From Candidatus Thorarchaeota archaeon (GTDB taxonomy: Archaea > Asgardarchaeota > Thorarchaeia > Thorarchaeales > Thorarchaeaceae), in assembly GCA_048882485.1 (NCBI GenBank), contig JBHLRP010000062.1, forward strand, positions 3,367-18,001: a stretch of DNA of 14,635 bases. Reading direction: 5' to 3'. Both the position numbers and the translations under genes were made by a program. This document shows positions 4,056 to 6,167 of the stretch, one piece after another. Every line of letters begins with the position of its first letter. The first letter of the stretch is position 1. The notes under the pieces are model-generated. The model ran no database searches, was not told where the DNA came from, and saw nothing but the letters and a program-made list of their open reading frames with translations.

Positions 4056-4949
4056 CTACGAGAAGACCTGCATCTCTTTCGCAGTTTCCATGTTCTTCTT
4101 GACTATATCGAGCTCGGAATCCAGTTCTAGGGCTTTTTGATAGCACTCAACAGCCCGTTTTACATCTCCCTTTTCTCTCAAAGCAACTCCAAGATTATTC
4201 CATCCGCGCGGATCATCAGGCGACAGTTCAGTGTACTTCTCAAGTATTGGTATCGCTTCCTTCCATTCGTCAAGAAACCAAAGAGTAGTTCCATATTTGA
4301 ATAGAATCTCGGGCTGCTTCCTCTTCACTGACAGACTTGACTCGTAGAACTCAGCTGCTCTCTCGTAATTTTGGGCATCATAGCAGAGATTCCCAACTGT
4401 GTTTATTGAACTTAGAGCTCTAGGATTCAAGTCTATAGCAGCGTTAAGGCTTGTACATGCGGCATTGTACCGGCCAAGTTGGGCTTGGCACATTCCTAGC
4501 ATTTCCCATACTTCATAGAGGCCAGGATGGGTTTCTAGAATATAGGAGGTGACAGTGAGCACGCTTTGGCAGTCATCAGCTTGGACAGCAGCCTTAGCCA
4601 TTGCCAAGAGAGTGTCCAGCTCGTTACCCCCAAGCTCAAGATATTTAGTGAGAGTTTCTATTGCCTCCTCATACATCTCTTCAGAGTATTGAAGCATCCC
4701 CGCATTCTCAATCGGTTCAATCCATTCCGGATCGATTTCCATGGCCTTGATGAAACACTCCAATGCTTCTGCAGACTTCTCAGCATCCTGATAGACTAAT
4801 CCCAGAAGATTCCATGCCATCACAAATGATTCGTCCATCTCAATAGCTGCCTTGAGGGATTCTTCTGCAGCGTTGAACTCTCCAAACCTCTGAAAATGCT
4901 CACCACGACGATATAATGACATTGCTTCGTCAGATGGGGCATTTGGCAT
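4056..4949 (-). CDS. Tetratricopeptide repeat protein
   Basis: About 8 34-aa TPR units, e.g. AWNLLGLVYQDAEKSAEALECFIKAMEIDP and GWNNLGVALREKGDVKRAVECYQKALELDS. Start is ATG 4949 or TTG 4976. Confidence 0.93.
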   Translation of the reverse strand: MPNAPSDEAMSLYRRGEHFQRFGEFNAAEESLKAAIEMDESFVMAWNLLGLVYQDAEKSAEALECFIKAMEIDPEWIEPIENAGMLQYSEEMYEEAIETLTKYLELGGNELDTLLAMAKAAVQADDCQSVLTVTSYILETHPGLYEVWEMLGMCQAQLGRYNAACTSLNAAIDLNPRALSSINTVGNLCYDAQNYERAAEFYESSLSVKRKQPEILFKYGTTLWFLDEWKEAIPILEKYTELSPDDPRGWNNLGVALREKGDVKRAVECYQKALELDSELDIVKKNMETAKEMQVFS

Positions 4950-5051
4950 TGTAAACCGCTTCCATTGGGTATCCAATTATGAATTATTCCTTGGAAAACA
5001 AGAGGTCCAGTGTCTTTTGAATCCTTATCGGTCATACTGTGATATTTCATG

Positions 5052-5130
5052 AGAAGAAAAAAGGAGGGGATTGTCCACACATTTGCGACATAGTGGACTC
5101 TCACCCTCAACCGGATTGGTCACGTTGAGG
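5052..5130 (-). terminator. Two 3' stem-loops followed by a pyrimidine/oligo-T tract
   Basis: CCTCAAC/GTTGAGG (5105-5111/5124-5130) and GTCCAC/GTGGAC (5073-5078/5093-5098), then TCCCCTCCTTTTTTCTTCT on the minus strand. Confidence 0.6.
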
Positions 5131-5131
5131 A

Positions 5132-5302
5132 TCATGCTATATAGTACCTCCAGAACGTTTCCAATTCTGATATATCTACACCATGCTCTTGTGTTTCGTT
5201 CTTCTCTTTGGAGGCATCCTTCTTGTCAACATCCTCTCCGTCAGAGGACAGGCAATTTGGATGCTGGTTTTTTATTGCTGTCTTGTCAGTTTCTTTTGCC
5301 AC
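5132..5302 (-). CDS. 56-aa charged, probably disordered small protein with aromatic C-terminus (..DISELETFWRYYIA)
   Basis: GAGGTGG SD-like motif just before GTG 5302 (alternative ATG 5344, 70 aa). Protein-like D/E/K composition, followed by a terminator-like element. Confidence 0.7.
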   Translation of the reverse strand: MAKETDKTAIKNQHPNCLSSDGEDVDKKDASKEKNETQEHGVDISELETFWRYYIA

Positions 5303-5600
5303 AATCTCCACCTCTAGAGAGAGACTGCCTTTATTGCAGTCCATGTGTTGCAGGATGACTAAGCAAGTCTGCTTGGATAGACTTGGTCATCCGGATTCCT
5401 TGTCGTTGCTGACTCACTTCATGTCAATCATTGATATCTGACTGAAGTGATGATAGATGATAGGGGTCGAAGCGGGAACTCAGAATGATTTTCATTCGTA
5501 TGGAATGGGCATCACATCACACTGTAAACTAGGTCCACGCACAATTTAGCTGACCTCCTCGACCTGACTATCATGCTAGTTGATAGAAGTCATCTTTAGT
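5303..5600 (-). ncRNA. Candidate structured 5' leader or ncRNA of unknown class
   Basis: Several 13-15 bp interrupted stems (see findings). Two mismatches resolve as G-U pairs on the minus strand. Confidence 0.45.
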
Positions 5601-5623
5601 GACGTGAGTTTCTACAGAAGCAG

Positions 5624-5637
5624 TATTATACCTTTCC
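5624..5637 (-). promoter_or_regulatory. Putative archaeal BRE/TATA (GGAAAGG-TATAATA)
   Basis: Purine-rich run directly followed by TATAATA on the minus strand. It would place a transcription start near 5600. Confidence 0.45.
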
Positions 5638-5699
5638 AACTACGCCATGTGAAAATGCACATAAGCGCCGCTTTGAACATGAAAAGACGGAGAGGACAG

Positions 5700-6167
5700 A
5701 TGACAAAGACAATCATTATCTATGAAAGCGTCTATGGAAACACAAAGAAGGTGGCAGATGCAATAGCAGAGGGCATTAGAGAGTCGGGTGAGATTGATTG
5801 TATCATTGCCAAGACTGGAGAGGTACATCATACCGATGACCTGGCAAAATATGATGCTGTCATTTTCGGTAGCCCCAATCACAATCAGGACCCATCACGT
5901 AACATGCTGAAGTTCATTGAACGAGCAGGTATTGTGGACCTTGATACCAAAATCGGCGCGGCATTTGATACTTACACTGGCGGAAACAAGGGAATTGCTG
6001 TGAAGAAAATGGAGCAGGTAATTCGCCAAAAAATGGCTTGTATCACATTTGTCATTGATGGCTTTTCAGCCAAGGTGGAGGGCAGAAAAGGCCCCTTAGC
6101 AGAAGGAGAGATTGACAGGGCTATTGAATTCGGGAAACAAGTGGCAGCCAAGATTCAGGGCAAGTGA
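5700..6167 (+). CDS. Flavodoxin family protein
   Basis: FMN phosphate loop IYESVYGNTKKVA, GSPNH and AAFDTY. ATG 5700 follows GGAGAGG. Confidence 0.93.
   Translation: MTKTIIIYESVYGNTKKVADAIAEGIRESGEIDCIIAKTGEVHHTDDLAKYDAVIFGSPNHNQDPSRNMLKFIERAGIVDLDTKIGAAFDTYTGGNKGIAVKKMEQVIRQKMACITFVIDGFSAKVEGRKGPLAEGEIDRAIEFGKQVAAKIQGK

Follow-up and report, generated by a model that had tools for sequence, protein, structure and literature searches.

In leaders of the ermC and cat type, an upstream ORF encoding a leader peptide is combined with a sequestered ribosome-binding site. Type I toxin mRNAs of the hok/sok kind also carry an upstream ORF within a structured leader, and in them a long-range pairing between 5' and 3' regions silences the translation of a very small protein. 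SD-like sequences are known as 5' stabilisers in Bacillus, the STAB-SD of the cryIIIA mRNA being one of them, and archaea possess 5'-to-3' exonucleases of the RNase J/aCPSF type. In Salmonella, mgtA is associated with an intergenic small ORF and with a leader whose ribosome-binding site is sequestered (PMC8092293), and upstream RBSs have been predicted in Sinorhizobium (PMC13285730). Asgard archaea are, among prokaryotes, the closest relatives of eukaryotes. Their post-transcriptional control is scarcely known, and among the papers listed by full-text literature searches, none dealt with a cis-regulatory mRNA leader in these organisms.

The DNA analysed here (the window; 14,635 nucleotides, C62:3367-18001) belongs to the metagenome-assembled genome of a Thorarchaeota (Asgard) archaeon (3.96 Mb in 157 contigs, 90.5% complete). 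The leader under study lies within a 724-nt gap (4977-5699), single-copy in this genome, between a TPR-repeat gene and a flavodoxin gene, and precedes a 56-aa ORF (Table 1). On comparative grounds, it was shown to be a selected, structured and non-coding leader on the minus strand, and the comparison of orthologues likewise showed a conserved core comprising two SD boxes, a mimic of the rRNA tail, a putative upstream ORF and a covarying masking helix. The locus represents a compact, sequence-defined candidate which brings together a promoter, a selected structured leader of ~300 nt with an SD-led upstream ORF, and a microprotein gene with a terminator-like region behind it, and which makes clear predictions for mutations in the 5' box, the internal SD, the P1b strand and the start codon of the upstream ORF; its reach is limited to part of one genus and to a controlled protein without known function.

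Table 1. Features of the leader and its surroundings in window coordinates, listed in the direction of the minus strand.
Feature	Position	Strand	Basis or remark
Flavodoxin gene	5700-6167	plus	
BRE/TATA-like promoter GTTGGAAAGGTATAATA	5640-5624	minus	nearly invariant in main clade
Predicted transcript start	5600	minus	27-28 nt downstream of TATA centre; conservation starts there
5' anti-SD-like box UGACUUCUA, mimic of the 16S rRNA 3' tail	5592-5584	minus	conserved in four lineages
5' domain: P1a stacked on P1b, upstream ORF enclosed	5454-5578	minus	RNAalifold consensus, 98-99% of cells paired
Helix P1a	5578-5568 with 5463-5454	minus	main clade only
Helix P1b, pairs flank of internal SD box	5564-5554 with 5475-5465	minus	all lineages
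Internal SD-like box AGGAGGUC	5559-5552	minus	invariant in 17/17 sequences
Upstream ORF, 10 codons, MCVDLVYSVM*	5512-5544	minus	behind internal SD box
Hairpin b: UCACUUCA-GUCA ... UGAC-AUGAAGUGA	5450-5443 with 5421-5414	minus	inner GUCA/UGAC helix
Hairpin c: GGAUGAC+CAAGUCU with AGACUUG+GUCAUCC	5392-5379 with 5370-5353	minus	
Hairpin d: GGACUGC N7 GCAGUCU	5342-5336 with 5328-5322	minus	compensatory changes
Weak local hairpin around main SD: UCUCUA GAGG UGGAGA	5305-5320	minus	
Main SD AGAGGUGGAG	5315-5306	minus	conserved
56-aa ORF, GTG start, conserved C-terminus SELETFWRYYIA	5302-5132	minus	frame kept in all orthologues
Terminator-like region: hairpins 5130-5105 and 5098-5073, then CCUCCUUUUUUCUUCUC	5051-5130	minus	sequence
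TPR-repeat gene	4056-4976	minus	

The gap was found again in 7 of the 16 other genomes of the genus, with 75-95% identity. Further orthologues came from 19-mer scanning of public genome and metagenome sequences and from contigs reached via the small protein, giving 14 distinct orthologous leaders (alignment A3) that constitute the main clade. A profile of the small protein led to three divergent loci, two of them in the same-genus genomes G016 (L056) and G003 (L073) and the third in the metagenome contig M1 (L074), so that four lineages and 17 leaders were compared in all. When 86 genomes of the family were searched, the small-protein profile gave matches within the genus only, and a covariance model of the 5' domain matched only the eight genomes already known. 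This model misses the divergent leaders of G003 and G016 even with filters off; both were aligned via anchors, by hand or script. Among 1.84 billion representative proteins, the small protein forms only 7 clusters (50% identity). Within the sequence collections searched, the leader and the 56-aa protein are restricted to part of one Thorarchaeota genus. An apparent TPR::small-protein fusion (P0017) was discarded as a probable assembly chimera, since its 753-nt contig has identical 25-nt ends.

The promoter proposed by the sequence-only reading is conserved across homologous loci. One or two substitutions are present in G014 and G011, the element is retained as GTTGGAAAA(C/T)GATATATA in G003, G016 and M1, and the block common to the four lineages reads GTTGGAAA..ATA. 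Past the promoter, a variable spacer of 23 nt precedes the point where conservation restarts. A palindrome at 5643-5667 is operator-like in appearance. In all lineages (including G016, M1 and G003), the ORF is followed by a hairpin and a U- or U/C-rich tract; a scan for terminators of bacterial type found none. The junction between leader and ORF shows neither a U-tract nor a conserved promoter, and a TATA-like AATAAAG near 5330 was rejected as an internal promoter: it falls in the variable loop of hairpin d and is not conserved. The predicted product is a monocistronic mRNA running on the minus strand from about 5600 to about 5055 and encoding the 56-aa protein. At the sequence level, the idea of a self-contained unit appears largely right, as the promoter, the leader of ~300 nt, the SD with its ORF and the terminator-like hairpin are conserved together at every homologous locus. 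Indeed, the unit is still there in G003, where the flavodoxin gene is absent, and in M1, where the TPR gene is a remnant followed by a glycosyltransferase, and it is missing in G012 and G013, where the flavodoxin gene has another context. The leader therefore belongs with the small ORF.

The window was compared with G014 and G009, its most distant main-clade relatives. At four-fold sites of the flanking genes (n about 300), identity is 42-45%, and in the whole leader it is 75-77%, reaching 96-100% in the first 53 nt, 81-89% in the 3' strand of the long helices and 75-83% in hairpin b; for hairpin c, it is 57-64% against 42-53% at four-fold sites, a modest excess only. Judged by these identities, the leader is under strong purifying selection. 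The ORF contains a single indel, of 3 nt, and the indels of the leader measure 1-2 nt and are not multiples of three, because of which the leader is regarded as non-coding. Sequence blocks are shared by the four lineages only at the promoter, in the 5' and internal SD boxes, at the base of hairpin c, in hairpin d and at the main SD.

The four stems (a to d) that the sequence-only reading had described are all present where it placed them. On the minus strand, the region 5303-5637 folds with an MFE of -100.4 kcal/mol (z -3.27), a value reached by none of 100 dinucleotide shuffles, which average -83.3 +/- 5.2 kcal/mol; on the plus strand, z is -1.21 and 11 of 100 shuffles are as good. The better pairing attributed to the minus strand was also borne out by the pair types, with 32 of the G-U type against 14 of the A-C type. 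Consensus folding of 11 non-redundant orthologues, assessed against column-shuffled alignments, gave z-scores of -5.6 (minus) and -3.6 (plus) for the whole leader, -5.8 and -1.9 for hairpin b, and -6.0 and -2.2 for hairpin c. The 5' domain, with z -3.3 on the minus and -4.7 on the plus strand, is therefore no guide to strand; the orientation of the leader is set by the order of BRE and TATA, the SDs and the ORF. Folded as single sequences, the divergent leaders of G003 and G016 are unexceptional (z -1.05 for each).

The RNAalifold consensus contains 84 pairs. In the 14 main-clade sequences, 95% of its cells are paired, as opposed to 30-45% after sliding the partners by 1-3 columns, and its covariation score was matched by only 5 of 500 shuffles. 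Most changes among main-clade sequences are one-sided, from G-C or A-U to G-U; six pairs of hairpin b have shifted in this way. The sequence-only reading had looked to covariation in orthologous regions, and several helices were found to keep pairing through compensatory changes. In P1b, whose arms read GGUCGAGG/CUUCGACC, GUUUCAGG/CCUGAAAC and GGUUCAGG/CCUGAGCC according to lineage, double compensatory changes between lineages affect 3 of 8 positions (G-C/U-A, C-G/U-A and G-C/C-G). Hairpin c forms in 17 of 17 sequences with distal arms that differ (AAGUCU/AGACUU, GUCCU/AGGAC, GUUC/GGGC), and hairpin d appears as GCCUGC/GCAGGC in G014, CUUGC/GCAAG in G003 and M1, and ACUUGC/GCAAGU in G016. The multi-stem architecture was only partly upheld: its stems are present and predicted to fold, but they do not form a conserved heart, the junction interior and P1a being found in the main clade only. 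The segment enclosed in G003, G016 and M1 is ~40 nt shorter and unrelated in sequence to that of the main clade, and the inner stems AGGTC/GACCT and GAATGA/TCATTC are not conserved and pair in the window's closest relatives only.

The boxes related to ribosome binding are shared more widely. The 5' box imitates the rRNA tail with U in place of C, takes the form (A/U)UGACUUCUA across lineages and lies 8-18 nt past the predicted start; the exception is the main-clade contig L041, with a single G>U change. The tail reads AUCACCUCCU in the same-genus genome G012, no 16S rRNA having been found in the window's own genome assembly. The internal SD box is complementary to this tail over 7 nt and thus constitutes a strong SD, and the GAGGUGGAGA of the main SD is invariant in all lineages. 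The 5' arm of the local hairpin, which masks the 3' half of the main SD, reads UCUCUA, UCCAU, UUCUCC or UCUCC depending on the lineage, with complementarity kept. In the window's genome, SD-like pentamers stand ahead of 21% of long ORFs compared with 5% at control positions. A near-leaderless mini-ORF at the 5' box, (A/U)UG-ACU-UCU, was considered and rejected, with lengths of 5, 8, 27 and 32 codons and a start lost once.

In every lineage, the 5' box has two predicted partners, the internal SD box (helix P0, -9.0 to -10.6 kcal/mol) and the main SD (-5.4 to -7.9 kcal/mol). Structures in which P0 is forced lie 0-12 kcal/mol above the MFE, P0 being part of the MFE structure in G009, and those in which the 5' box is forced onto the main SD lie 2.5-8 kcal/mol above it. 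The AGG of the internal SD box is used by both P0 and P1b, so that these pairings are predicted to be mutually exclusive. Both helices of the 5' box are built of invariant boxes and are therefore beyond the reach of covariation; moreover, an anti-SD sequence complementary to one SD pairs with any other, and the dual pairing could thus be incidental.

An upstream ORF of 9-11 codons is present in the four lineages, starting with TTG, GTG or ATG 7-9 nt past the internal SD box; the probability of such an ORF arising by chance is 2-5% per lineage. Of the 14 main-clade sequences, 7 begin it with TTG and 6 with GTG, and the stop, always in the same column, is TGA in 11 and TAA in 3, the TAA variant disrupting a predicted pair while the stop is retained. 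G014 is without an SD-proximal start, though it retains an intact in-frame AUG 10 codons upstream. The stop adjoins the 3' strand of P1b in G003, G016 and M1. No coding-type bias or purifying-selection pattern was detected at the codon positions of this ORF.

Like the mgtA, Sinorhizobium, ermC and cat leaders, the Thorarchaeota leader places an SD-led short ORF in a structured RNA with a ribosome-binding site that would be masked by pairing, and ribosome traffic on this ORF would be expected to remodel the RNA. In contrast to those bacterial leaders, it belongs to an Asgard archaeal host and shows no sequence or Rfam relationship to them, and it includes a third element, the 5' rRNA-tail mimic, predicted to pair with both SDs. 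The SD, start codon and short ORF typical of ermC/cat leaders were found in the four lineages, but a conserved stalling peptide or diagnostic codons were not, as the peptides are unrelated (MCVDLVYSVM in the main clade, MFRESAQCDA in G003, MIRPMFATGKA in G016 and MIRVEFAPC in M1). The upstream ORF is also distant from the main SD (~210 nt): since it ends (5512) about 200-210 nt short of it, direct ribosome-mediated unmasking of the main SD, as in ermC, is ruled out.

We give about even chances to the leader being a cis-acting translational control element that operates as an SD/anti-SD relay with an upstream ORF. In such a relay, the 5' box would pair either with the internal SD box, forming P0, or with the main SD, and the internal box would either head the upstream ORF or be locked in P1b by the downstream strand. 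In the P0 state, the main SD would be free and the gene on; in the P1b state, the 5' box would be released and could mask the main SD, turning the gene off. The balance between P0 and P1b might be shifted by ribosome loading on the upstream ORF or by another factor. The transcript ends, the translation of the upstream ORF, the switching and its trigger are inferred. It is rather doubtful that the locus goes as far as a new class of archaeal riboregulator, in which the rRNA-tail mimic would alternate between the true SD and a decoy SD that leads the upstream ORF, and in which expression of the Asgard-specific microprotein would report ribosome availability, a ligand or a protein.

The leader is possibly a stability element too. 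A purely stabilising or structural role, in which the P0 stem, together with a ribosome sitting on the internal SD and the upstream ORF, would block 5'-to-3' decay with no switching, agrees with the location of an anti-SD box and an SD-like box <=60 nt from the predicted 5' end in all lineages, and with the early appearance of P0 in nascent-RNA folds (once 60 nt are included in G000 and G003, and 100 nt in G016). It is nevertheless unlikely, as it leaves unexplained both the covarying helix P1b, a competitor of P0, and why another 200 nt, with hairpins b to d, are conserved. The comparison with the STAB-SD of cryIIIA is similarly incomplete: both have an SD-like sequence near the 5' end and far upstream of the main start, but the Thorarchaeota box is followed by a start codon and the 9-11-codon ORF and has two competing masking partners.

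The relay also resembles riboswitch expression platforms and RNA thermometers, in which the choice between mutually exclusive helices determines if an anti-SD strand can mask an SD and weak, G-U-rich pairings are involved. Exclusive pairings involving the SD are predicted here in a long, highly conserved multi-helix leader that matches no known class, and about 50 consecutive nucleotides are near-invariant, more than helices alone need, all of which would suit a ligand-sensing riboswitch with the multi-stem 5' domain as aptamer and the SD/anti-SD pairings as expression platform. A conserved unpaired core and junction, however, was not found in all members, since in G003, G016 and M1 the junction interior and P1a are not conserved and the junction is absent or unrelated; no cross-lineage aptamer was found in this leader. 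Moreover, the invariant boxes are accounted for by the fact that they are complementary to the 16S tail and to one another, the element occurs in one copy per genome, and the downstream gene has no metabolic annotation. In contrast to those platforms, the 'anti-anti-SD' itself precedes a start codon and an ORF. Ligand sensing is thus considered improbable.

Sequence conservation far above what the helices need, together with the persistence of the 5' domain in G011 despite a deletion, could also be reconciled with a dual-function or independent small RNA, whose 5' ~150-250 nt would act in trans or serve as a binding site for a protein (such as the small protein or the TPR protein), the ORF being expressed separately. 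We attach little probability to this alternative, as the leader has no U-tract, conserved terminator or conserved promoter ahead of the ORF, leader and ORF always co-occur, and the combination of 5' box and SD occurs once in the window's genome, with no second site. A lack of any RNA-level function, the region consisting of DNA elements of two divergent promoters or of an unrecognised protein-coding gene, is in line with its position between divergent genes and with the operator-like palindrome, but it is highly improbable and already largely refuted by a conserved stretch that spans 300 nt, by helices preserved through compensatory and G-U-type changes, by indels that are not multiples of three, by the persistence of the leader in G003 without flavodoxin and by its absence where flavodoxin has another context.

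As had been anticipated, the leader corresponds to no recognised class: the whole window gave no match at gathering thresholds in Rfam 15, and a permissive scan of 4900-5800 returned four chance-level matches (E 4-7) far below thresholds. An archaeal C/D box sRNA was also considered and rejected; the weak sR44 and SNORD124 matches score 11-17 bits against thresholds of 40-45, the only CUGA (5483-5480) is lost in most orthologues and the D box is not conserved. The hok/sok mRNAs resemble the present locus in the long structured leader, the upstream ORF, the long-range 5'-3' pairing and the very small product. Nevertheless, the small hydrophobic membrane toxin of type I systems has no equivalent here, the product being hydrophilic and charged and without a hydrophobic segment, no antisense RNA gene is evident, and the locus is a single chromosomal copy with conserved synteny. 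The leader shares single features with each known system and lacks a defining feature of each family tested; its best classification is therefore as a new RNA family, restricted to one genus, of the general kind 'structured cis-regulatory mRNA leader'.

The SD and the 56-aa ORF pointed out in the sequence-only reading are both conserved. Among the 14 main-clade sequences, the start codon is GTG in 10, ATG in 3 and TTG in 1, and one serine codon varies synonymously; in G003, G016 and M1, the codon past the main SD is ATA or ACG. An in-frame upstream ATG in most main-clade sequences would allow a 70-aa form, ruled out in G009 by an in-frame TAA. D, E and K are abundant in the product, which ends in the conserved sequence SELETFWR(Y/S/C)YIA, a C-terminal peptide that may dock on the adjacent TPR protein. 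In G011, a 300-nt deletion (window about 5525-5226) between GTT(T/G)AC microhomologies fuses the first six codons of the upstream ORF, with the frame maintained, to the last 33 residues of the small protein, with the predicted product LCMNLVSKKDAS...SELETFWRYYMAQS*. This single case, anecdotal as it is, fits a C-terminal motif that is functional and an internal SD that works as an initiation site.

The small protein closes with a conserved aromatic C-terminal peptide, SELETFWRYYIA, and in three of the four lineages its gene is followed by the TPR-repeat gene. Since C-terminal peptides are common ligands of TPR domains, the small protein and the TPR-repeat protein may be partners. A predicted 67-aa protein, P0017, has the TPR protein's N-terminus and the small protein's C-terminus; the two ends of its contig share 25 identical nucleotides, which points to an assembly chimera as its probable origin, rather than a real fusion.

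The C-terminal motif is also present in a natural deletion of the main clade, where genome G011 has cleanly lost 300 nt flanked by GTT(T/G)AC microhomologies. The lost stretch takes in the main SD, the bulk of the leader and the small ORF's N-terminal half, and its loss puts the upstream ORF within the leader into one reading frame with the C-terminal motif; the predicted product has 39 aa. The original stop codon has disappeared as well, which adds two residues at the C-terminal end.

In the three divergent lineages (genomes G016 and G003, and metagenome contig M1), ATA or ACG occupies the position of the main-clade start codon. The sole canonical in-frame starts of the small ORF in these lineages lie in or beside hairpin d and lack an SD; the start there, and with it the protein length, is putative.

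Coordinates of the features described in the text
Feature	Locus and position	Strand	Sequence or location
Small-protein gene	window 5132-5302	minus	
TPR-repeat gene	window 4056-4976	minus	
P0017	L075:1-753		
Deletion in G011	L018:1853-1972; window ~5226-5525		
Small-ORF start region, G016	L056:1029-1050		
Small-ORF start region, G003	L073:1674-1695		
Small-ORF start region, M1	L074:1371-1415		
Box	window 5012-5045	minus	ATATCACAGTATGACCGATAAGGATTCAAAAGAC; between terminator-like tract and TPR gene
Imperfect palindrome	window 5643-5667		CGCCATGTG-AAAAT-GCACATAAGCG; between two divergent promoters
16S rRNA 3' end, G012	L076:3040-3160		

The core of the box before the TPR gene, GTATGACC..ATTCAAAAG, was found again in most lineages, partially in G003, and is kept even in M1, beside a truncated TPR remnant. 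The TPR start in G016 is the ATG of the counterpart of this box; the window carries AGG at that position, and its candidate TPR starts are TTG 4976 or ATG 4949.

On the opposite side of the unit, the palindrome is kept in the main clade and absent from G003, which has no flavodoxin gene; it may represent an operator for the flavodoxin side.

Separately, two insertions were observed in the 16S rRNA 3' end of G012, a genome of the same genus, one after AAGUCGUAAC and the other a hairpin, GGAAGAAGUAGAGAGUCACUCUCGCUUCC, immediately ahead of the AUCACCUCCU tail. Both look like unusual small-subunit expansion segments.
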